Source: Candidatus Saccharimonadales bacterium
Lineage (GTDB): Bacteria > Patescibacteriota > Saccharimonadia > Saccharimonadales > JAXHNE01
NCBI GenBank assembly: GCA_041600755.1
Contig: JBFIJL010000005.1
Span: 1-47,572, forward strand
DNA: 47,572 nt
Direction of reading: 5' to 3'
The position numbers and the translations under genes were made by a program. Below are positions 3,211 to 23,865 of this stretch, one piece after another (position 1 is the stretch's first letter; the number at the start of each line of letters is the position of its first letter). The notes below the pieces were generated by a model. That model worked only from the letters and a program-made list of their open reading frames with translations. It was not told the origin of the DNA and ran no database searches.

Positions 3211-5709
3211 ATGAGAGGGAAGAAACAGCCGATGCTTGCAAAGCCACAACAAGCCTACAAGTCTATGCGACTATTTGCCAACCGAACGCTTTTGGCGACT
3301 CTTTCGCTCACTCTAGCCTCGGCAAATATACTGTTTGTGTTTGTGCATCCAGAAAAAGTTGATGCAGCACCAGTGACGTATGTTGCATCGGCAAGCGCAA
3401 CAAGCGGAGTGGGTACTTCAATATTAATAAACAAACCAACAGGAACAGTTGAAAATGATGTGCTCGTAGCTACTGTGGCATTCGTAGGATCTAGTGGATA
3501 TACAGTGAGCCCACCTGGAGGCGGCGGCTGGACGTTAATTAAAGACGTCAGTACATCGGGGTATTATCCTGGCAAAACATACTACAAAGTTGCTGGATCA
3601 AGCGAGCCTGCTAGCTATACATTTACGGTAAGTTCATCAACAAATGCAGGCGTAGGGGGGATTGTAAGCTATCGTAATGTGAACACGTCAAGCCCAATTG
3701 ATGGCAATTCCGCGTTGGCAAGCGGAAGTTCTTCAACTCACGTCGCTCCTGCGACCACAACAACGGCTTCAGAAACAAGAACTGTTGTTATATACAATCA
3801 ATCAACAGTTGGCACTGGACTTAATATGAGCTGGACGGCTACTACACCTTCTACGATGTCCGAAAGAGTGGACACCTACGGTAATTTCAGTACATCGTAC
3901 ATAGGGCTAGGTTTCTATGATATATCGCAGAATGATGCTGGAGCGATGGCTACTAAGACCGCAACGTCAACACGGAGCTCAAGTTATACTGCGTTTCAGT
4001 TTGCGCTTGTACCAGCCGACCCTACTAGGATGTTGCTGTATTGGGATGGTGGGGCCGCACCATCTGGCTGGAGTTTTGTGTCAGAAGCAAATGATAAGTT
4101 CATAAGAGGTGAATCGCCAGCTAATTATGGCCTAACTGGAGGGGCGGCCACTCATGCAACGACCGCCAGCGTGACTGTCGGCCCCGCAGATACTGGTAGT
4201 CAGGGTGGTGTTCGTGGCGGTACCGCAGACAGTGCTGCAACAGCCCATACCCACACTGCCACCGCCAGTATTGGTTCGGCAAATAATCTTCCAGCATATA
4301 GGACATTAAGGCTTATGAGATTTGATGCAGGAATTCCCAATAATATTCCTGCGGGTGCAATTGCACTTTTTGATGATAGCCCAGGCATTATTCCGCCACA
4401 GTTTACGCGTTATTCGGCTCAGGATGGATCGTTTGTTAGATCTGCATCCACCTCTGGCTCAACAGGAGGATCGAATACTCACACGCATACGATTACCTGG
4501 AGTAGCCTTGCTGCCTCTGCGGGCGAAGTCAGAAGGACTGCTCCATTATTTCTAAATAACTCAGTCGCCAGTAATGCACATACCCATAATGCCCCTGCTG
4601 CCACCACGACTAGTACCAATGGCACGTCAGCCGCAGACTGTGAAGTGGAGCCGGTTGGAGATAGCTGCTTGCCACCTTACGTGAATAGTATACTCGCTAA
4701 AGCCAATGAAGATACGCCAACACTCTCTATAGGTATTACGGCGATGTTTGACGCTGATCCCGGGGGTGGCTGGGTTGTTAGATCTGATTCAGGAGGATCG
4801 TACTATCAAAAATTTATGCGTGGAAGTGCGTCTTACGACGAAGTGTGTGGTCAGCTAGGTATTGGTGACGGGACCTGTGGAGAAGCAGAGCATACTCACG
4901 TCAATGCAACGACAACCAGTACGAACAACAACGGGGGTGGCTCTAATGCACTGCTCGGTTTAGGTTCGGTCGCATCTCCCCACAATCACGTCATGACAGC
5001 TGCTTTTAATCCAGCAAACAATATTCCAGAATACTACAATGTTGTTGTGGCAGAAAAAATTAACTTTATTCAGCATCAGTATCGATGGTTTGTGGATTCG
5101 GATTTAGCCGATGTGACTGATCCGTGGTCTAGCCAAGATATCCCGCAGAATACAGCGATTACGGTTGTGCCGGTGGCGAATGATGCGCCTCGTGCTAACA
5201 GGGAGTTGAGGTTGCGTACACAGATTCTTGTAGGAAATAACGACCTTGCAGCCAATGGAATCGAGTTTAAATTACAGTACAAGCTTGGTACTGATGGACT
5301 ATGCACTACAGGCAGCTGGCAGGATATAGGTGACCCTGGAAGCGGGCTACCTTGGCGATATGCAGCATCTAGTGTAGCGAACGGGGCGGACTTAAACGCA
5401 TTCCCAAGCAGGATCAATAGTCCAACATCGAATGTTATGCAGATATATGTCAAGGATGCCGGTGCAGGAACCAATCCGCGAGCCGTTAGCGTTGGGCAGT
5501 ATGCAGAATATGATTTTCATATCATGCATAACGGTGCAGATGGCTCAAGTCGGTATAGCTTTAGGATGGTGGAGGACAGTGGTATTTTGTTGAGTCAATA
5601 CGATAGTTGTCCGACTCTTGTAGCATTTCCGGACACCGAAGATCAGTTACGACATGGTAACTTCTTCGAGAATGGACTTGGAGAGACTGGATTCTCATGG
5701 TCAGACTAA
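3211..5709 (+). CDS. Secreted Ser/Thr/Gly-rich protein with three phage tail-collar-like / HxH fibre units
   Basis: Signal-peptide-like N-terminus ending V-D-A. Three units of the form (P.GW)...F.R...GG..THxH...HxH...NxxPxY. TGG-TATACT (-10 at 3195-3200) upstream. Confidence 0.75.
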   Translation: MRGKKQPMLAKPQQAYKSMRLFANRTLLATLSLTLASANILFVFVHPEKVDAAPVTYVASASATSGVGTSILINKPTGTVENDVLVATVAFVGSSGYTVSPPGGGGWTLIKDVSTSGYYPGKTYYKVAGSSEPASYTFTVSSSTNAGVGGIVSYRNVNTSSPIDGNSALASGSSSTHVAPATTTTASETRTVVIYNQSTVGTGLNMSWTATTPSTMSERVDTYGNFSTSYIGLGFYDISQNDAGAMATKTATSTRSSSYTAFQFALVPADPTRMLLYWDGGAAPSGWSFVSEANDKFIRGESPANYGLTGGAATHATTASVTVGPADTGSQGGVRGGTADSAATAHTHTATASIGSANNLPAYRTLRLMRFDAGIPNNIPAGAIALFDDSPGIIPPQFTRYSAQDGSFVRSASTSGSTGGSNTHTHTITWSSLAASAGEVRRTAPLFLNNSVASNAHTHNAPAATTTSTNGTSAADCEVEPVGDSCLPPYVNSILAKANEDTPTLSIGITAMFDADPGGGWVVRSDSGGSYYQKFMRGSASYDEVCGQLGIGDGTCGEAEHTHVNATTTSTNNNGGGSNALLGLGSVASPHNHVMTAAFNPANNIPEYYNVVVAEKINFIQHQYRWFVDSDLADVTDPWSSQDIPQNTAITVVPVANDAPRANRELRLRTQILVGNNDLAANGIEFKLQYKLGTDGLCTTGSWQDIGDPGSGLPWRYAASSVANGADLNAFPSRINSPTSNVMQIYVKDAGAGTNPRAVSVGQYAEYDFHIMHNGADGSSRYSFRMVEDSGILLSQYDSCPTLVAFPDTEDQLRHGNFFENGLGETGFSWSD

Positions 5710-6428
5710 GCGTATCGAGAGCAAAACTACGCAAAGTCGTAGACTGGCTGCCAGCGATACTGATTAGTCTTGTGATCGTCGGAGCGTACCACACCCAGAT
5801 ATATGCAAATCGTGCACCAAGTAGTTCTGAGCTTGCAGCTTATCTGTCTGGCGGGGGGCAAGTTAGAGGCGGGAGCATCTCCACTAGAGGCTATCAGCAA
5901 GTTTACTACATGTTTAATGGTGGTGTGTACTACCTGACAGATGGTCCGGAAAATCGACGAAATGTATCAATTTCAGGAAGATATATCGCTTGGGAAAAAG
6001 AAGTAAATGGCAGAGGTCAGATTGCCGTTCATGACTTGCTCACTGGTACGAGCCGTATGGTGACTAGTACTGGAGCCAACCAGTTTCCACGCGTTGATCA
6101 GTTTGGGAATATCGCTTGGGAGCGCTGGGACGGTGGAGTGTATCAAGTTATATACTATTCCTATCAGAACAACTCTCTTTCCAAAATTTCAGATTCCGAA
6201 AGAGGCGGCATTCGGCCTACTGTTTTAGGCAATAGAGTAGCGTATGCCACACAGGAGGCCGACATGAGCTGGTCTGTAACGGAGGTGGATGTGGTTACTG
6301 GAGATAGATTTTCAATACTAACTGGCAGAATCTCAACAGACGCATGGCCACAGTATCAGTCTCAAACGGAGCTAACAACGGACTTGAGTCAATTCAAAAA
6401 GCTCGTCGAACCTCTTATTCAGCAGTAA
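5697..6428 (+). CDS. Membrane-anchored TolB-like / beta-propeller repeat protein
   Basis: N-terminal TM segment; repeats SISGRYIAWE...QIAVHDL, QFPRVDQFGNIAWE, PTVLGNRVAY. Confidence 0.6.
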   Translation: MVRLSVSRAKLRKVVDWLPAILISLVIVGAYHTQIYANRAPSSSELAAYLSGGGQVRGGSISTRGYQQVYYMFNGGVYYLTDGPENRRNVSISGRYIAWEKEVNGRGQIAVHDLLTGTSRMVTSTGANQFPRVDQFGNIAWERWDGGVYQVIYYSYQNNSLSKISDSERGGIRPTVLGNRVAYATQEADMSWSVTEVDVVTGDRFSILTGRISTDAWPQYQSQTELTTDLSQFKKLVEPLIQQ

Positions 6429-7209
6429 TTTTATCTATAATAGCTTGGATTTGTGGCGATGAATTGGGGTTAGCCTTTGACTGTAGAATGTTTGACAGTT
6501 CCACGATCGATTCACTTTTCAAGGCATCATAGTCGCTCTTACAGGTGTTAATGTGATCAGCAGTTGTGTTTTCAAAACATTTCAGGACATGCTGAACTGC
6601 GGATTTAGTCGTTGCCGATAATGTGTAGGCGACGACGTTAGGAATTTCGACAGTACTTCCATCGGGTAGCTGATACCATTTCTGTGCATTATATTTTCTA
6701 TCGCTTTCACCAAATGATTTGAGCGCGGATATTGCAGTCGAAAGACGCTCTTCTTTGGTAGTAGTCACTGCCTCTGACTGCTGCAGATCAAAGACTGGGC
6801 TATAGGCTAAAATTGGATCTATGAACTCCCTGAACCCTAGAAATTCAAGATAGGTGCGCCGTGTATGATCAACCAACTGCTCGTAGTCGTTCTGGCTAAT
6901 GCCTATTGTATTGAGGTCGCTAGCGGCAAGATCGAAACTTCTATTGATACTGGATAACCTATCAGTTAAGGCAATTGCAGTATTGTACGACTCGGAAGAG
7001 TCGACAGCGAGACTATCAAGTTCATGAGTAAGTAGTGCATATTCCTGTAAGGTGTCGATGAACTGTTGTTTGGTGCGGGAGTTCCCTTCATTCTTGCTCT
7101 CGATGTAGCTCGGCACGATAATGAAACCAGCGTACACTACTGCAAGGACAGTTACGCATGCGGCGCTACGAAGCAGATGGCGAGTGAAGCTCTTTTTATT
7201 AAATTTCAT
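6415..7209 (-). CDS. Hypothetical membrane-anchored protein
   Basis: 264-aa ORF with basic N-terminus plus TM helix, helical body and a Cys pair near the C-terminus. Confidence 0.7.
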   Translation of the reverse strand: MKFNKKSFTRHLLRSAACVTVLAVVYAGFIIVPSYIESKNEGNSRTKQQFIDTLQEYALLTHELDSLAVDSSESYNTAIALTDRLSSINRSFDLAASDLNTIGISQNDYEQLVDHTRRTYLEFLGFREFIDPILAYSPVFDLQQSEAVTTTKEERLSTAISALKSFGESDRKYNAQKWYQLPDGSTVEIPNVVAYTLSATTKSAVQHVLKCFENTTADHINTCKSDYDALKSESIVELSNILQSKANPNSSPQIQAIIDKITAE

Positions 7210-7403
7210 ATAAGAAGTCTAGCACAAAAGCATAAGTATTATGCTACTAGCATTATACGGTTAGTTTGGATGGCGTGGTTCGAGTTGAGGATTGCATCAA
7301 ACCAGGGGTGAAAAGCTTTGCATTGCGTACAGTTACGAGGTAAAATAGAGCCAGATCTAACAAAACAAAAAGATCAAAACAAACATACAAAACGGAACAA
7401 TCA

Positions 7404-10400
7404 ATGACTGACCGAGTGATTGCTCGAAATATTGTGCGACATTGGATGCGCTTAGCTTCCAGGGTATCTCTAACCACTTTGGGTAGGGGTTTTGTTTGTT
7501 TAGTTTTACTTTTGGTTCTTGTTTCTTATACGCGCGTATATACACCTACGCGCGTGTATGCTGCAACTGCCGATACTCTAAATTTTCAAGCTCGGGTTTA
7601 TGATTCAGCTGGCAATACTGCTGTGGACGGTAGCTACTCAATTTCGTTTAAGCTCTACGAGGCCGCATCTGGTGGTGCTAGTGTCTGGACCGAAACACAA
7701 GGGGCTGTGAATTTAAAAAATGGCTACTTTAGCGTAGAACTTGCATCTGTTACGCCATTTGGAGGCGGTATAGATTGGTCGCAGGAAAAGTGGCTAACAA
7801 TGAACATTAACGGCGATGGCGAAATGAATCCGCGACTCAAGCTCACCGCCACTCCGTACTCCTTGCTTTCCGAGCAGGCAAACACCTTAAGCGATGGCCT
7901 GGGTGGTGCACTCGCTGCCAACGAGTTAGTGCAGTTAACTCCGGGCACGCCACAGGCAGTTGCTAGCGCGCTTGCGGCACTTCGTATAAATCAAACTGGT
8001 GGTGGATTACTAGCTCAGCTCCAGGGCGACAGCATTGATTCATTCACTATTGCTAAGAATGGAGACGTAACTTCAACTGGAAGTGGAACTTTTGCTGGTG
8101 GAATTAAGATTGCCGGAATATCGGTTTTGACGAGTGGACGAGAATTGCAGAATATTACAGGGCTTACAATTGTGTCTGGAGGGGCAGGCATCACTGGCGG
8201 CATCGATAATAACAGCGGTGGAATTACAAATGCTGGTGCCATCAGTGGTATAACGGGTGTCACTTTCACGAGTGGTAATCTGAACCTCGCAAACGGCGGC
8301 ATTGTTAATGCAGGCAGCATTGCCGGGGCTACTACGATTGTAGCCAGCGACAACATCAATACAACCGGTGGATCTCTTTTGACGAATAGCATAGCCCGTA
8401 TTGCAAATAACGGAGCATTGCAAAATGTGACTGGCGACAATAGTAATGGCGTGAGTCTTAATGCGAACACAATTACTGGCGGAACGCTTTCTGCGGCACG
8501 AGGCGGTACGGGTGTTGACGGTTCAGCTGCGGCTAATGGACAGCTACTTATCGGAAATGGTTCTGGATATACTCTGTCCACGCTCACTGCTGGCAGCGGT
8601 GTGAATATCGTAAATAGCCCAGGAGCGATAGCGATAGCCGCAATACTTGGCGACAGTATTAGTACTGCCGAAATTGAGAACTCTGCCGTCACGACTGCCA
8701 AGATTGCAGACGGAAATGTGACTAACACTAAGCTTGCAAACAGTTCACTGACAGTAAATTCTGGAACTGGATTGAGCGGCGGTGGGCTAGTGAGTTTGGG
8801 TGATAGTATTACATTGAACCTGGACGATACTGCCGTGACGGCTGGTTCGTATGGTTCGACGAGCAGTGTTGCAACCTTCACAGTTGACGCGCAAGGCAGA
8901 TTAACTGCAGCCGGCACAACAACACTTGCCAATACCGCCCTACAAAACAGTAGCTTTAGTCTTATATACGGCAGTGCAAATTTGAGCGGTGATGCAAACG
9001 TCTCACTGGGCGGAACGCTTAACATTGATTTTAGCGACAATCCGTCATTTACGACACTCACGACTTCCGGGGCAATCACCGCGGCAACATCCACAAACAC
9101 AATCAATGGTCTTGTTATTAATAGCGGTGCGCTTAGTGGTGTAACTGGCATAGCGTTCACCAGTGGCAGTCTTAATCTTAATGGTGGTGATTTAACAAAT
9201 GGCGGAACTCTAACTGGCGTGACAATTAATGCAACCTCCGGATTTCAGCACAATGGCACCAATGGTCGTACTCTGAATTGTAGCTCAACTGAAGGAATTG
9301 AGGATGTCGAGATTCGTGGCGGAATAGTAATAACCTCAGCTTGTAGAGGTTTTGGTTTGTCGGATTCGGGACTAAAGGAAAATGTTACAAGTCTTAGTAG
9401 CTCTGTTCTCGATGACATTCGAGATGTAAATGTCGTTAATTTTGATTTTGACTGTACGAATTCAATTTTTGTTCAAAACGGAGGAACCTACTCATGCGAT
9501 AACAGTACACAGACAGGTGTAATCGCACAGCAACTTGAAGCTATATTCCCTGATCTTGTGTTCACGGGCGACGACGGCTATAAGCGTGTTCGCTACGAGG
9601 GCCTTGCAATGTATAACCTTAAGGCCGTTCAAGAGCTGGCAAGTCTTGTGGATTCTTCAGGCAATTACGACATAAATTCAGTTAGCACTAACGGCGTGTT
9701 GCGACTGTCGAGTACAGGCGAGCTAACAAACATTAATGGCCTGACAGTTTCTTCGGGCGGTGCTTCGATTACTGGCGGTATCGATAACAATACTGGTGGC
9801 ATTACAGAGGCTGGGGCGGTTAGTGGCGTAGCAGGTCTGACATTCGCGAGTGGAGCTTTGAATCTTAATAACGGCGGAGTTACCAACACCGGAAGTATTG
9901 CTGGCGCAACTAGCATAACTGCAAGCGATACGTTGAATCTAACTGCTGGAGTTTTGCAAACAAACAGCGTTACACGCCTAACCAATGCGGGCGCCCTACA
10001 GAACATTACAACAATTAGCGCTTCCGGCGCCATAGCTGCTGCAACCACCACCAACACTATTAATGGCCTTGTTATTAATAGTGGTGCGCTTAGTGGTGTA
10101 ACTGGATTTGCTCAAACTAGCGGCAACTTTACTCAATCTGGATCTGGAACCTTTGCAACCGGCACAGGCCAGAACACATTGAATGGGCTCACAAGTTTAA
10201 CTGGCAATACAACAATCACCGGCTCTAACACATTTACTGTTGGGTCTGGGCTGACGACATTAGGGGGCGGGCTTACGCTCACAGGAACTACAACAATTAA
10301 TCCAAGTGGAAGTGCAGCAGTTTCTATTGGTAATGCATCCACGCCACTGTCGATTGCATCATCGGGGCTTAGTGTTGCGACGAGCGGCAACTTAAAAACA

Positions 10401-20094: not shown

Positions 20095-20556
20095 ATGAAG
20101 ATTCATTTTATATGCCGTGGAAACGCTATTCGCAGCATAATGGCAGAAGCGTACCTAAAATCGCGTGAACTAGAGAATCTTGAAGTTGCATCGTCGGGCA
20201 CTGTCGCCAGTGCGCATCATGACATAAACGTGTCGGTATTCGCTCGCGTCGCGGAAATATTAGACAAGCAAGGACTTGCAGCGTATCGAAAATCCGATTT
20301 CGGAGATCAGTTATCGAGCGATAGCTTCAGTAGCGAAGACATAAATATCTGTATGAGTGATGAGGTCGTTGCTGAGGCCAAGCAACTTGTTGATTTTGCG
20401 CAACCACCGATTATTTGGCATATTAAAGACGTTGATGTCGGTGAGCAGAGAATTGAACACACCGAGACTCAGCTGGACACCTTCTTGGGTGAAGTTTATG
20501 GCGACATCAAGGAACACGTTGATATGCTCGTTCAGCAGCTTGGCTTACTCGTTTAG
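20095..20556 (+). CDS. Low-molecular-weight phosphatase / arsenate reductase superfamily protein
   Basis: P-loop FICRGNAIRS (CX5R), MAEA, SSGT; W.I.D near the C-terminus. Confidence 0.85.
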   Translation: MKIHFICRGNAIRSIMAEAYLKSRELENLEVASSGTVASAHHDINVSVFARVAEILDKQGLAAYRKSDFGDQLSSDSFSSEDINICMSDEVVAEAKQLVDFAQPPIIWHIKDVDVGEQRIEHTETQLDTFLGEVYGDIKEHVDMLVQQLGLLV

Positions 20557-21375
20557 GCTGAAGCGCTGAATAAGATCTTTTGTCGACTCTAGTGTAAAGC
20601 CATGTTCGTTGGCTAGCGCCCTGAGGGCCTGGTGTTGTGACGTTAGGCTTTCGGTCAGTATTGCTTTTGGCTTCTCAACAAGCTGGTTAATTTGCTTGAA
20701 CATTTTACGGTAGGCATCTAGCCCGTCATCGCCCGCGAATAGCGCCAGAGCTGGCTCAAATTGAGCTGCTTGATTGATGGGGTGGTTGTCAGGTACATAG
20801 GGTAGGTTAGCCAGTATGATAGTTGATGATTGATAGGTGCTAGGTGATATTGGCTCCAATAAGTCGCCTTCAAGTAACTCAATCTTTGCGCCAAGGGTTT
20901 GCGCATTTGTTTGTGAAATATCAAGACATTCGCGGGATATGTCAGTCGCCAATACTCGGATGTCGGGTTGTTCCAACTTCATGGATATTGCAATGCAGCC
21001 AGTGCCAGTGCCGACGTCTATGATATTTTCAACCTTCAATTTCTCATTTTCGATTAACTGGATTGCCATCTCAATCATTGCCTCAGTTTCCGGCCTAGGT
21101 TGCAGCGTGTCTGCTGTCACTAAAAACTCCCGTCCATAGAACTCACTTCGTCCACGGATGTAGGCTAGCGGTTCGTGGTTTGCTCGTCGCTCTACTAAGC
21201 GTCCAAGCTTTTTGACTTTCTCGCTTTCCAGCTCTACTTCAGGGTGGGCGAGTAGCCAGGCCCGGTCTTTGCCAGTAATATCTTCAAGCAGCACCAGACA
21301 GTCTAGACGCGCCGACTCAACACCAACAGTCTTCAACTTCTTGGCCGTAGCATTTATAAAATCCTTGATTGTCAT
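20545..21375 (-). CDS. prmC: Release factor N5-glutamine methyltransferase PrmC/HemK
   Basis: EPLAYIRG..EFYG, PRPETE, DVGTGTGCIA, ANLPYV, EP..ALF.G.DGL. Confidence 0.96.
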   Translation of the reverse strand: MTIKDFINATAKKLKTVGVESARLDCLVLLEDITGKDRAWLLAHPEVELESEKVKKLGRLVERRANHEPLAYIRGRSEFYGREFLVTADTLQPRPETEAMIEMAIQLIENEKLKVENIIDVGTGTGCIAISMKLEQPDIRVLATDISRECLDISQTNAQTLGAKIELLEGDLLEPISPSTYQSSTIILANLPYVPDNHPINQAAQFEPALALFAGDDGLDAYRKMFKQINQLVEKPKAILTESLTSQHQALRALANEHGFTLESTKDLIQRFSLNE

Positions 21376-21395
21376 AAAGGTAAGTATAGCAACAT

Positions 21396-21439
21396 ACTAA
21401 GCACAAGCATTGACAAAATAGCAATAATTTGCTAAGATA
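21396..21439 (+). promoter_or_regulatory. Sigma70-type promoter, copy 1 of an identical 44-bp repeat
   Basis: TTGACA (21410-15), 17-bp spacer, TGc-TAAGAT (21433-38). Contains the inverted repeat TAGCAA-N4-TTGCTA. Identical to 22065-22108. Confidence 0.85.
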
Positions 21440-21487
21440 GTTTCAAGATTCCAAAACAGACAGAATCAAAACAAAAAGGAAAATGAA

Positions 21488-21997
21488 ATGTCAGAAAAAG
21501 CACCACAGTCAATACTAAAAGAAGTAAATGGTAGCATTGATAGGATTCTTGACGATCCTAGCTCAAAGGATGAAGGTGGTTACGATTCTGCGCTTGGTGG
21601 GGTTAATGGGATTAGCCATATGAAAATTAATAATGGCATCGTTGAAAGAAAACATTCTAGAGATGATTTTGATATAGTGCGAAAGATAACGGCAACAGAG
21701 CTAACTGAGGATGGCTTCGGTGACACACACGAAGCATTTACGAGAACGTACAATCACGACGGTGGCATAGTAGATCCAAGGGGTAGGACGTCATCCGAAG
21801 GAACAGAATATAGAAATTTATTTGCAGGTGCCCAGGTAAGTCGTGAAACAGATTCGGGTGAAAGATACGTCCATAGTTTTAAACATGATAATGTTCCAAG
21901 GGCACAAGCGTTGATTGCCAGTCTGGCAACCAACAGGGCGGTTAAAGCACTCGATGAAAACGGAAAAAAGATCAAGAAAGGCAGGCGGGTATATTAA
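21488..21997 (+). CDS. Orphan hypothetical protein, cassette 1 (169 aa, basic C-terminal tail)
   Basis: Own promoter and AAAGGA RBS; hydrophilic; ends KKIKKGRRVY. Confidence 0.8.
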   Translation: MSEKAPQSILKEVNGSIDRILDDPSSKDEGGYDSALGGVNGISHMKINNGIVERKHSRDDFDIVRKITATELTEDGFGDTHEAFTRTYNHDGGIVDPRGRTSSEGTEYRNLFAGAQVSRETDSGERYVHSFKHDNVPRAQALIASLATNRAVKALDENGKKIKKGRRVY

Positions 21998-22036
21998 TTA
22001 CTCGTTGCCGAGGAGTTCGTGTTCGGCTTCGTGGAG
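21998..22036 (-). pseudogene. Displaced remnant of the prfA 3' end
   Basis: Reads LHEAEHELLGNE* versus [12 protein letters not shown] at the end of intact prfA. 19-bp identical core aggagttcgtgttcggctt at 22011-22029 and 22593-22611. Confidence 0.85.
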
Positions 22037-22064
22037 TATTCTTGTGATGCAACCCACACCCCTA

Positions 22065-22108
22065 ACTAAGCACAAGCATTGACAAAATAGCAATAATTTG
22101 CTAAGATA
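22065..22108 (+). promoter_or_regulatory. Sigma70-type promoter, copy 2 of an identical 44-bp repeat
   Basis: actaagcacaagcattgacaaaatagcaataatttgctaagata, identical to 21396-21439. Confidence 0.85.
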
Positions 22109-22150
22109 TGTGTAAGCTTTTAAAACAAACGAAACAAAAAGGAAAATAAA

Positions 22151-22555
22151 ATGTCAGAACAAATTACATCAAATTTTGATAAAAACGAAATAGAATGGTT
22201 GCCAGAGGCGGCTATTGAAGTTGGTCTATCAGATTCAGCTGCTTTGGAGGAAGTGATGGAGCGTAGAAAAGAGCTTGCGGACAGTCTAGGAATGTCAGAT
22301 TTATCCTGGGATGGTTGGTCCAATGAACATGGTCGTGCTGCTAGGATTGCAACAGACTTAGGCACAGATACTATTGATGCAACTGAATTACTTGGTTCTG
22401 ACACCTTAGATCTACTCGAGACATCCGTAAGAAGTACCTATTCTCACGCTCCTGGTCTACTCCCGGAAGGTCATGTTGATTTGAGAACAATGAAAGAGTT
22501 ACGCGATGAAAGGGTTGCACAAATCAAAGCGCACTACGAAGAACAGGCAAAATAG
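22151..22555 (+). CDS. Orphan acidic hypothetical protein, cassette 2 (134 aa)
   Basis: Own promoter; RBS/start aaacaaaaaggaaaat(a/g)aaatgtcagaa shared with cassette 1. Confidence 0.8.
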   Translation: MSEQITSNFDKNEIEWLPEAAIEVGLSDSAALEEVMERRKELADSLGMSDLSWDGWSNEHGRAARIATDLGTDTIDATELLGSDTLDLLETSVRSTYSHAPGLLPEGHVDLRTMKELRDERVAQIKAHYEEQAK

Positions 22556-22579
22556 AAAGGGCTTAGCGTTGGTCGACTT

Positions 22580-23632
22580 TTATTCGGAGCTTAGGAGTTC
22601 GTGTTCGGCTTTGTGAAGTTCTTCTATAATGTCGTCAATGTTGCCGTCCAGGGCACCAGGAATGTTGCTGCGGCTATAGCCAATGCGGTGATCTGTAATA
22701 CGGTCTTGCGGAAAGTTGTAGGTTCGGATTTTTTCACTGCGGTCACCACTACCAACCAGTTTTTTGCGCTCTGCAGATAGTTTGGCGTTATCTTCGTCAA
22801 TTTTGTGCTGGAGTAGGCGAGACCGGAGTACACTCATGGCTTTGAGCTTGTTTTTTATCTGAGATTTTTCGTCTTGGTTGGTGACAACCAGTCCGCTTGG
22901 AATGTGGGTAATGCGCACCGCAGAGTCAGTGGTATTTACTGATTGGCCACCGTGGCCCCCAGCGCGGTAGACGTCTATACGCAGGTCTTCGGTTTTAATT
23001 TCAATGTCAGATTCTTCGGCTTCTGGCATGACGGCAACGGTTACGGTGCTGGTGTGCACGCGGCCTTGGCTTTCGGTTTCGGGAACGCGCTGTACGCGGT
23101 GTACGCCGCCCTCGAACTTTAAGAACTTATAGGTATCTTCACCGCGAACTGCAAAGCTAACTTCTTTGAATCCACCAGCGTCTGATGCTGATTCGTTTAG
23201 GAGTTCTACCTTGTAATCGTGCGTTTCTGCCCAGCGTATATACATGCGGTACAGTTCACCTGCAAAGAGGCTGGCTTCATCGCCGCCCGCGGCCCCACGA
23301 ATTTCGACAATGACGTCTTTTTCATCGTTGGGGTCTTTTGGTGTGAGGATTTCTGTCAGTGTTGCCATGGTTGACGTGAGTTTTGATTCTAGTTCTGTGA
23401 GTTCAAGTCGAGCCAGGTCGGCTAGTTCGCCGCCAGCTTCGATCATGTCGTTGGCATCAGCAATTTCAGATTCAAGCTGGGATTTTTCATCAAACAAGGC
23501 AAGGGTGTCTTCTAGCTTCTTTTGGCGACGGGCGATTTTTGGGTAGCTGGGAGTACTGAAGATACTTGGGTCTTCTAGTTTTTTGGCAATGGCTGCCAGT
23601 TCGTCTCTAAATTCTTGCTCTTTTTTATCCAT
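22580..23632 (-). CDS. prfA: Peptide chain release factor 1
   Basis: [25 protein letters not shown] (PxT), [30 protein letters not shown]. Confidence 0.98.
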
Positions 23633-23685
23633 AGTTGGTCCTTAGTATACAGAAAAATCTCTCTTCCATTTTGTTTCGGCAAAAC

Positions 23686-23865
23686 GGAAGCCAAAAACCG
23701 ACAGGAGGGAATTGTTCTTTATGTCCTCGTCGTCAAAGTACACAATGCTCGGACAACTTGAACTTCTTTAATATTTGGGATAGAAGTTCTTCGGACAAGC
23801 CCTCGCAATATATTGTGACTTTGACACTCGTGCATCAGGAACAATTCCAATCCTGGGTTAGCTCC
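23686..23865 (+). ncRNA. Candidate 6S-like RNA (long rod-shaped hairpin with internal bubbles)
   Basis: Nested complementary arms: cagga 23702-06/tcctg 23851-55; ggaattgttc 23708-17/gaacaattcc 23839-48; gtcaaagt-a-cacaat 23732-46/attgtgactttgac 23812-25; gaacttct 23760-67/agaagttc 23782-89. Strand is inferred only from G-U extensions. Confidence 0.55.

Follow-up and report, generated by a model that had tools for sequence, protein, structure and literature searches.

Organization of the prfA-prmC interval

The stretch of DNA analyzed here (hereafter, the window) was 47,572 nucleotides (nt) long and corresponded to contig JBFIJL010000005.1 of assembly GCA_041600755.1 from a Candidatus Saccharimonadales bacterium. 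The source genome (G000) consisted of 807,510 bases in six contigs, with the window as contig C5, and was 97.7% complete by marker genes. The GTDB family of the window was made up of four species genomes only (G000 to G003). Between prmC and prfA, the window showed two stacked units, each composed of a 44-nt header with a predicted promoter, a leader and an open reading frame (ORF), and a displaced copy of the prfA 3' end (the remnant) lay between them. Both units were on the plus strand and convergent on prfA, which was intact and ended in its own live tail. The features of the interval are listed below (aa, amino acids; RBS, ribosome-binding site).

20545..21375, minus strand: prmC (release-factor glutamine methyltransferase), 276 aa, with PrmC_N (E = 1.4e-19) and MTS (E = 1.7e-10) matches; taken from the ORF list
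21396..21439, plus strand: header 1, a copy of the 44-nt repeat, from the repeat search, genome search and promoter scan
21410-21415, 21419-21434 and 21433-21438, plus strand: elements of header 1, namely -35 TTGACA, palindrome TAGCAA-TAAT-TTGCTA and TG-extended -10 TAAGAT
21440..21487, plus strand: leader 1, A-rich and ending in the RBS/start block; its first ~24 nt are common to the G002 leader
21469-21496 and 22132-22159, plus strand: RBS/start blocks of unit 1 and unit 2
21488..21997, plus strand: ORF1, 169 aa, convergent on prfA; codon score within the range of real genes, with no relative found
21998..22037, minus strand: displaced prfA 3' end (remnant), 33/40 identical to the live tail, with its core at 22011-22029
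22038..22064, no strand: junction filler of ~27 nt from the remnant to header 2, read directly from the sequence
22065..22108, plus strand: header 2, the other copy of the 44-nt repeat, with its -35 at 22079-22084 and its -10 at 22102-22107
22109..22150, plus strand: leader 2, ending in the RBS/start block and unlike leader 1 between the -10 and the RBS
22151..22555, plus strand: ORF2, 134 aa, predicted all-helical, of a small hypothetical-protein family (HMMER)
22580..23632, minus strand: prfA (peptide chain release factor 1), 350 aa, intact, with PCRF (E = 8.6e-65) and RF-1 (E = 2.5e-40) matches
22580-22619, minus strand: live prfA tail

The start of prmC was 20 nt from header 1 and the two were divergently transcribed. 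The stop codon of ORF1 (21995-21997) directly abutted the stop codon of the remnant (21998-22000). The leaders differed in both sequence and length, with 48 nt from the -10 to the ATG in unit 1 and 42 nt in unit 2. The filler at 22038-22064 showed only a weak likeness to the next prfA codons or to the sequence upstream of header 1; the window repeat search reported no significant repeat there and its source was not identifiable.

Repeats of the header and of the prfA tail

The 44-nt header was present as a direct repeat that was 100% identical at 21396-21439 and 22065-22108. A 43-mer of the header, searched with up to 3 mismatches, had 2 matches in the window compared with 0 in 100 shuffles, and the same 2 copies were the only ones in the whole 807,510-base assembly. 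The RBS/start block, AAACAAAAAGGAAAAT(G/A)AAATGTCAGAA, was 27/28 identical between the units, again with 2 matches in the window and none in the shuffles. For the prfA tail, the remnant (21998-22037) was 33/40 identical to the live tail (22580-22619) and its minus-strand reading was LHEAEHELLGNE followed by a stop. A tail core of 19 nt was identical at 22011-22029 and 22593-22611, matched the window twice and the shuffles not at all, and occurred in exactly two copies in the genome with no third.

The identity profile along the two units was 44/44 up to the -10, divergent in the leader, the ORF and the last 13 nt of the tail, and 19/19 in the tail core. The stretches of perfect identity (header to -10, and tail core) were also the two best conserved among relatives, with identity lost between them. 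Overall, the stacked repeat structure is real and not due to chance. The two units with an identical promoter and a near-identical RBS and start, as given in the preliminary description of this DNA, were found in their places and nowhere else in the genome, and the displaced prfA tail with its identical 19-nt core was borne out, the remnant measuring 40 nt.

Sequencing-run contigs

Three sequencing runs, all from the same marine-metagenome study, had contigs covering the stretch. In X1, probably the source run, three contigs (20400-21425, 21410-22094 and 22079-23691, at depths of 16, 12.9 and 17) showed no differences from the window and broke only at the 44-nt repeat; the middle contig, which carries unit 1 at 12.9, spanned the junction of remnant, filler and header 2 (21998-22094) with 0 differences. 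In X2, one contig at a depth of 4.4 joined 21395 to 22065 and skipped 669 nt (unit 1), while a 195-nt piece of ORF1 was also present at a depth of 4.5, with zero-depth bins beside the repeat. The k of the assembler (31) was smaller than the 44-nt repeat, therefore the contigs cannot phase the units, and a form without unit 1, if present, would add no new words. There was no sign of misassembly at the remnant junction in the run contigs.

An assembly artefact, in which the 44-nt repeat led the assembler to stack two alleles (ORF1 type and ORF2 type) of a polymorphic single-cargo locus that never share a molecule, would agree with the breaks of the X1 contigs at the repeat, with k = 31 contigs that cannot phase the units, with the depth of 12.9 for unit 1 compared with 16-17 in its flanks and with the joining contig in X2. 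We consider it highly improbable, since the remnant was joined to header 2 within one X1 contig and no single-cargo allele would contain that join. The depth drop over unit 1 amounted to ~1.6 standard deviations (a rough estimate), X2 held the ORF1 piece as well (4.5×), and empty bins by a repeat can give a false joining contig at low coverage. In addition, G001 and G002, which were independently assembled, showed the same kind of stack.

Further along the window, at 23680-23800, both X1 and X2 showed a second contig of similar depth with 10 differences (among them T>A at 23724 and C>T at 23731), which indicates a co-occurring close strain or related organism.

ORF1 and ORF2

ORF1 and ORF2 both started with MSE and were otherwise unalike. 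The best BLASTP match between them had an E of 0.024 over 34 aa, hhalign of the ORF2-family profile against ORF1 gave a probability of 1% and hmmsearch with the same profile gave E = 2. The two are thus not detectably paralogous at the level of sequence, in agreement with the earlier view that they share only their first residues. The in-frame codon-usage scores of 0.147 (ORF1) and 0.202 (ORF2) were within the range of real genes, with reference values of 0.228 (mean) and 0.105 (5th percentile) for long-ORF windows and 0.015 (95th percentile) for off-frame windows.

ORF1 matched only itself in a word-indexed search of 5.8 billion proteins and was not matched in any of 400 further genomes from the order. 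ORF2 also gave self matches only in the word-indexed search. For both ORFs, the protein atlas had no usable match, Pfam had 0 families at E ≤ 1, and PADLOC and PHROG had no family at E ≤ 0.01. Comparison with 65 ORFs from comparable positions in relatives gave no match at E ≤ 0.05, and the sole match under the cut-off of E ≤ 0.1 was one of 24 aa to ORF2 (E = 0.092). Single-sequence AlphaFold2 models had a pLDDT of 32.6 for ORF1 and 46.4 for ORF2, which was too poor for a fold search.

A HMMER search of 1.84 billion representatives found relatives for ORF2: P0003 (141 aa, 56% identity, E = 3.5e-25), P0004 (45% identity, E = 1.6e-13) and P0006 (36% identity, E = 6.7e-5). P0003 is a metagenomic protein and its cluster had 7 members on Joint Genome Institute (JGI) contigs of ≤5 kb. 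Another candidate, P0005, was a 959-aa protein with carrier-protein-like repeat units of which only 43 residues were matched, and was judged spurious. The family alignment did not find the ORF2 family in 400 other order genomes, in 400 phylum genomes or in viral contigs. On these matches, ORF2 is a member of a small genuine family with affinities outside the sampled order.

The likeness of the two units could also come from slippage or unequal crossing-over, by which a single unit of header, ORF and the first ~45 nt of the prfA tail was duplicated locally in tandem. One ORF would later have been replaced or have diverged, while selection or gene conversion kept the promoter copies identical. 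In its layout, the interval matches exactly a tandem repeat that has its right end inside prfA; the 44-nt headers agree at every position, lineage-specific ones included, the RBS/start block is 27/28 identical, and a comparable stack of two 'MSEKAP...' ORFs with related ~100-nt headers is present in another family (L070). This origin nevertheless appears unlikely. The ORFs have no detectable likeness, yet ORF2 is 56% identical to an outside protein, and so evolves too slowly to have lost its likeness to a recent twin; the header (100%), the leader (lower) and the tail (83%) do not agree on a single date of duplication; and a foreign import would still be needed for one ORF, by which the explanation merges into that of accretion by recombination, set out further below.

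The prfA-prmC interval in relatives

The gap between prfA and prmC was ≤89 nt in 40 out of the 62 Saccharimonadales loci in which the end of prfA and the start of prmC could both be located, and ranged from 306 to 4168 nt in the other 22. In a separate set of 15 order-level loci, 7 were adjacent, including that of G036. L057, a genus-level relative and among the metagenomic loci the one with the prfA nearest to that of the window (83% aa identity), had a gap of ~5 nt. The prfA of the window had 84% aa identity to those of G002 and G003. The common adjacency of prmC and prfA that had been assumed at the outset therefore holds for 40/62 loci of the order and for L057.

The cargo differed in each of the four genus genomes. 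The gap of G003 contained a Wzy_C-like gene of 473 aa only. In G002, the gap contained a Wzy_C-like gene, a header with a 175-aa ORF, a prfA-tail remnant and an 81-aa coiled-coil ORF before the live prfA, and in G001 it contained a 145-aa ORF behind a different promoter, a remnant and a frameshifted small ORF of the 81-aa type before prfA. In the 22 loci whose gaps measured ≥250 nt, the gap was searched for likeness to the last 100 nt of the prfA of that locus. Only 2 of the 22, L143 (G001) and L172 (G002), were far above chance, while 3 further loci had matches of 10-11 nt (E = 0.009-0.037) that were taken as chance. Overall, an order of older cargo, old tail, newer cargo and live prfA was present in 3 out of 4 genus genomes (G000, G001 and G002). 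A variable hotspot, as the preliminary description had called the locus, is supported by four different cargoes in four genus genomes and by the recurrence of the displaced tail in G001 and G002.

Among the genomes with displaced tails, there were two kinds of junction and two kinds of inner gene. The remnants of G001 and G002 were mutually orthologous, reached ~66-70 nt into prfA and were followed by a header-less gene, so that the tail-displacing insertion of these two genomes carries no header. The remnant of the window was prfA-like for ~40 nt and was followed by the filler and header 2. The differing depths of the remnants (~40 vs ~66-70 nt) could be the result of one old event that was later trimmed.

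Other observations were made in this interval in relatives. In L007 (G030, of a different family), a homologue of the G001/G002 coiled-coil gene ('...DGFTKLFKYIEDRF...') was found in the prfA-prmC gap in the opposite orientation, co-directional with prfA. At L058:6046-7119, prmC matched in two pieces (residues 1-115 and 117-272) that were ~260 nt apart, and prmC of this metagenomic relative may contain an insertion or an additional domain. In L143 (G001), the match to prfA was split into two pieces (residues 1-37 and 24-350) that overlapped and were in different frames, and the ORF of the 81-aa family was cut to 60 aa by a frameshift; the frame break of prfA and the frameshifted small ORF are either real decay or assembly or consensus errors.

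The promoter header and its distribution in the order

Both headers had the arrangement TTGACA-17-TAAGAT with a TG before the -10 and agreed with the consensus at 10/12 positions (a consensus match only). Each unit is predicted to have its own strong, near-consensus promoter of the sigma-70 type. The palindrome TAGCAA-N4-TTGCTA in the spacer is probably a repressor site. No terminator-like site was found downstream of ORF1 or ORF2 by the consensus scan, in which the only match was weak and inside ORF1; therefore, read-through would be expected from unit 1 via the remnant into unit 2, and antisense from unit 2 into prfA. Rfam found nothing at E ≤ 1 in 21200-22800 and nothing window-wide at the gathering score.

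The pattern of the header class was TTGACA-N3-TAGCA-N6-TGCTA. Its 29-nt core, searched with up to 3 mismatches, had 25 sites in 22 out of 401 order genomes including G000, and none with the reversed control. Among the 25 sites, L038 and L052 looked doubtful and L056 duplicates another site at a contig end. Of the 25 sites, 23 had an ATG-started ORF of ≥40 aa beginning no more than 150 nt away. These header-driven ORFs ranged from 93 to more than 490 aa, many began with MSE, MTE or MSQ, and they were mostly unrelated, with only three related pairs in an all-against-all BLASTP (E ≤ 0.01). Pfam showed GGDEF in 2 of the 23 ORFs, FHA in 2, PP2C in 1, PG_binding_4 in 1 and beta-lactamase2 in 1, and nothing in most others. 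By synteny with G000 genes, the sites were at no fewer than 8 chromosomal places, and three of these places had a conserved header with unalike ORFs (L033/L040/L046, L035/L053 and L037/L050). A layout like that of the window (prmC, header, a 138-aa 'MSET...' ORF and prfA) was found in G059 of another family (locus L036).

With the relaxed pattern TTGACA-N3-TAGCA-N6-TGCTA (≤1 mismatch), 3, 1, 2 and 1 sites were found in G000 to G003, and 0 with the reversed control. The third class promoter of G000, which was diverged, was TTGACATTTTAGCAATAAAATGCTA on the minus strand at C2:208047-208071 (L227, C2:206547-209571). It preceded a 513-aa ORF (C2:206477-208018, minus strand) with an FHA-like stretch, seen by eye, that aligned with the Pfam-confirmed FHA end of the L035 ORF. 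An ortholog of the 513-aa ORF was present in G001 (L225, 43% identical) behind the same kind of site, and L035 and L053 had a full header at the place syntenic with this ORF. Since the class also precedes the conserved, vertically inherited 513-aa FHA-type gene, the header is no distinguishing mark of mobile cassettes. A genome-wide regulon of the exact palindrome TAGCAA-N4-TTGCTA was dropped because the exact palindrome occurred at the two headers only; the sites in G000 with one mismatch were in rRNA or coding DNA, except for that of the third class promoter at C2:208047. Overall, the header is likely a conserved promoter with an operator that would define a very small regulon, as judged from the distribution of its motif.

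The two headers of the window were each other's nearest relatives, both with the upstream CTAAGCACAAGCA and the -10 TAAGAT, which are variable elsewhere. Leader 1 continued to match G002 (92.6% over 54 nt) and header 2 matched it in the 30-nt core only (100%), thus unit 1 is probably the older, inherited one.

The preliminary description had also called the header a standardised expression header of the cassettes. It does precede unrelated ORFs across the order, and the part of the claim that did not stand is its restriction to cassettes, given its position before the 513-aa FHA-type gene. A further reading takes the header with its promoter, palindromic operator, A-rich leader and ATG-TCA-GAA start as a portable expression adaptor, common to the Saccharimonadales, and as a homology anchor, which would amount to a functional analogue of an integron without a recombinase. 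This is offered tentatively and is rather doubtful. If true, competent bacteria of the candidate phyla radiation (CPR) would exchange and stack single-gene payloads by using the header and the end of an essential gene, all under one regulator.

A related promoter type was found before two stacked convergent ORFs in L070 and before single ORFs in L168 and L147. L070, from another Saccharimonadales family, had a prfA-prmC gap of 4.2 kb (locus coordinates about 4955-9120) with stacked, convergent ORFs of 314 and 204 aa that both started with MSEKAP. Its headers of ~100 nt, consisting of TTGACA-tttaagcacaagtatga-TAAGAT plus the leader, were near-identical by eye in the two copies, and no prfA-tail remnant was found in the L070 gap. 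In addition, a header-driven 440-aa protein was 91% identical across GTDB families (L039:1566-2885 in G027 and L044:1189-2508 in G033), while prfA was far more divergent between the two genomes, and a small ORF resembling a helix-turn-helix (HTH) protein was located just upstream of the 440-aa gene in the same region of G027 (locus L027). This suggests a recent transfer of the 440-aa gene or a common mobile element.

Recombination genes and similar footprints in the genome

A single match to the tyrosine recombinase family PF00589 was found in the genome (C4:33924-34451, in a 319-aa frame) and none in the window. This protein is presumably, and most simply, a Xer protein. The matches to PF00239 were on C3 and C1 only, as a 526-aa large serine recombinase and a broken resolvase piece, respectively. 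The serine recombinase (L138 / L222; C3:114667-115119) was near a contig end and was the sole candidate for a mobile-element integrase in the genome. No match to rve, DDE_Tnp_1 or TnpB was found in G000, and no recombinase was found in or beside the prfA-prmC inserts of the genus. The window is accordingly free of integrase and transposase genes, as noted in the preliminary description. ComEC, DprA and RecA were encoded in the genome. Natural transformation that depends on comEC and leads to homologous integration was shown experimentally in another, cultivated Saccharibacterium (PMC10633639).

Two other places in G000 had small inserts bracketed by repeats. The 3' end of the tRNA-Asn gene (L221:909-983) plus 14 nt was repeated with 94% identity ~330 nt downstream (L221:965-997 and L221:1296-1328; C2:97464-97496 and 97795-97827), and the pair resembled the footprint of attachment (att) sites around a very small insert without a gene of its own. 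A terminator-like hairpin of 55 nt was duplicated with 94.5% identity on C2 (L220:1157-1211 and L220:2367-2421) and bracketed two genes, one of the TetR family and one with DUF1761. An 81-aa coiled-coil ORF immediately upstream (L220:883-1128) was by eye of the same family as the prfA-inserted gene of G001 and G002.

A site-specific integration was considered in which a recombinase, located elsewhere or lost, would insert small circular cassettes, each bringing a replacement tail, at an att core within the 3' end of prfA; the two tails would then represent attL and attR. The insert is flanked by direct repeats of a gene 3' end with an identical core of 19 nt, the same genome has the tRNA-Asn 3'-end remnant ~330 nt downstream of its gene as well as the 526-aa large serine recombinase on C3 and the tyrosine recombinase on C4, and the event recurred in the genus. 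Set against this are the small size of the inserts (only ~0.3-0.6 kb), none of which has a recombinase in it or beside it, and the depths of the remnants, ~40 nt in G000 and ~66-70 nt in G001/G002, which are unexpected for a fixed att site. In addition, the genome has no third copy of the tail core that could be attP, the other 20 large gaps in relatives showed no tail repeat above chance, the crossover cores of large serine recombinases are very short, and the tyrosine recombinase is most simply a Xer protein. This explanation is therefore regarded as distinctly improbable.

Proposed origin of the stacked units

The origin proposed here is that of a stack of accessory genes, in which recombination driven by transformation, with the 3' end of prfA as its anchor, led to the accretion and replacement of promoter-equipped genes. 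We give this reading about an even chance of being correct. Since prfA and prmC are adjacent in relatives, they were probably abutting originally. Small promoter-equipped genes would then have been placed between them in the genus, convergent on prfA. At least twice, incoming DNA would have recombined inside the last ~40-70 nt of prfA and given a functional replacement tail, and the old tail with the earlier cargo would have been shifted towards prmC. As each replacement tail pushes the older cargo to prmC, the stack would grow at the prfA end. Donor DNA from relatives may enter by natural transformation, followed by RecA/DprA-dependent strand exchange anchored on the conserved 3' coding sequence of prfA. 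The far end may be closed by an illegitimate join (homology-facilitated illegitimate recombination, HFIR), by which a new unit is stacked and the old tail is left behind, or alternatively by a second crossover in the conserved header, by which the cargo is swapped. A dedicated recombinase would not be needed, and the identity pattern would fit crossovers in the header (up to the -10) and in the tail core. The affinities of ORF2 outside the sampled order and the two other places in the genome with repeat-bracketed small inserts are consistent with accretion by recombination.

Several points weigh against this origin. No donor was found and ORF1 had no known relative in the searches made. The headers are identical even at positions that are variable among relatives, which argues for a local copy or gene conversion and not for an import from a distant donor. 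The anchors, at 19-44 nt, are short for a RecA-mediated exchange, and HFIR was rare where measured (PMC5361080). The direction of insertion is itself a deduction from the map, and a header-anchored insertion with a donor tail fragment would give the same one. The promoter, the operator and the absence of a terminator are consensus-level predictions. Tail remnants were seen in this genus only. The sliding identity along prfA against the genus members showed no break or 3' mosaic, and the remnant agreed with the live tails of G000-G003 at 32-34/40 positions and with that of L057 at 30/40, which makes the tail matrix uninformative. For the earlier proposal that unit 2 arrived with a new prfA end, the geometry fits, but no 3' mosaic was seen in prfA and the tail comparisons were not discriminating.

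Comparison with known systems

The closest known match in topology and proposed mechanism is the C-terminal displacement of the Rhs and contact-dependent growth inhibition (CDI) toxins and of type VI secretion system (T6SS) effectors. The Rhs/CDI toxin displacement arrays and the T6SS effector-immunity clusters were proposed to form by HFIR (PMC5361080), and that paper cites Jackson 2009, de Vries & Wackernagel 2002 and Prudhomme 2002. As is proposed for the prfA-prmC stack, these arrays use a conserved gene as the homology anchor, a new 3' end with its cargo is inserted, and the old 3' end with the older cargo is shifted downstream and kept, which gives an ordered stack. They also lack an integrase and occur in transformable hosts, which is matched here by the competence genes and by the competence shown in another Saccharibacterium. 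The prfA-prmC stack differs from them in that its anchor is the essential housekeeping gene prfA instead of a polymorphic toxin, the displaced sequence, at just 40-70 nt, does not encode a domain, and its cargo is convergent with its own promoter and had no toxin or immunity family match in Pfam, PADLOC or PHROG.

Integrons consist of IntI, attI, the promoter Pc and attC cassettes, with promoterless cassettes expressed from the common Pc. Like them, the prfA-prmC stack lines up small units of one gene each and would grow from one end, newer units displacing older ones. Unlike in an integron, no IntI-type recombinase is adjacent (the sole PF00589 match being on C4), the unit boundaries are copies of the promoter and the prfA tail, and each unit has its own promoter instead of Pc. 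A search for attC/attI-like sites in 21200-22800 gave 3 inverted repeats with arms of 13-25 nt that were 212-1086 nt apart, none of them at a unit boundary, although a dedicated attC model was not run. The description of the arrangement as integron-like is thus not upheld in a mechanistic sense, with no integrase in the window, no attC-like sites and a promoter for each unit.

Genomic islands integrate at the 3' ends of tRNA, tmRNA or protein genes and duplicate them as attL and attR. The duplication of the target 3' end around the insert and the element-proximal copy that keeps the gene intact are shared with the prfA-prmC stack, which differs in its insert of 0.3-0.6 kb (header and ORF2), the lack of an integrase, the variable depth of the junction and the lack of an attP copy. 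At capsule and O-antigen loci of transformable bacteria, the cargo is swapped by recombination in the flanking homology. Such replacement-type flexible loci are like the prfA-prmC interval in having unrelated cargo between the same conserved flanks in related genomes and unlike it in the length of the flanks, which here are very short (a 44-nt promoter and a gene tail of 19-40 nt). Since the stack retains a leftover tail, not all of the events can have been clean double crossovers. No description of the prfA-prmC locus or of the promoter motif was found in the portions of the Saccharibacteria literature that our search covered.

Significance

The genomes of CPR/Patescibacteria are tiny and largely syntenic with few classical mobile elements, and their gene gain is poorly understood. 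The prfA-prmC locus shows in concrete form how genes may be gained when DNA recombines into an essential gene at its 3' end; the pattern is repeated within one genus and is paralleled at other places of G000. In addition, the occurrence of a 25-29-nt promoter/operator across many families before unrelated and often family-less genes points to a small, unrecognised regulon of the Saccharimonadales, and the header class may be a route for wiring new genes into it. Both ideas are testable in transformable model Saccharibacteria.

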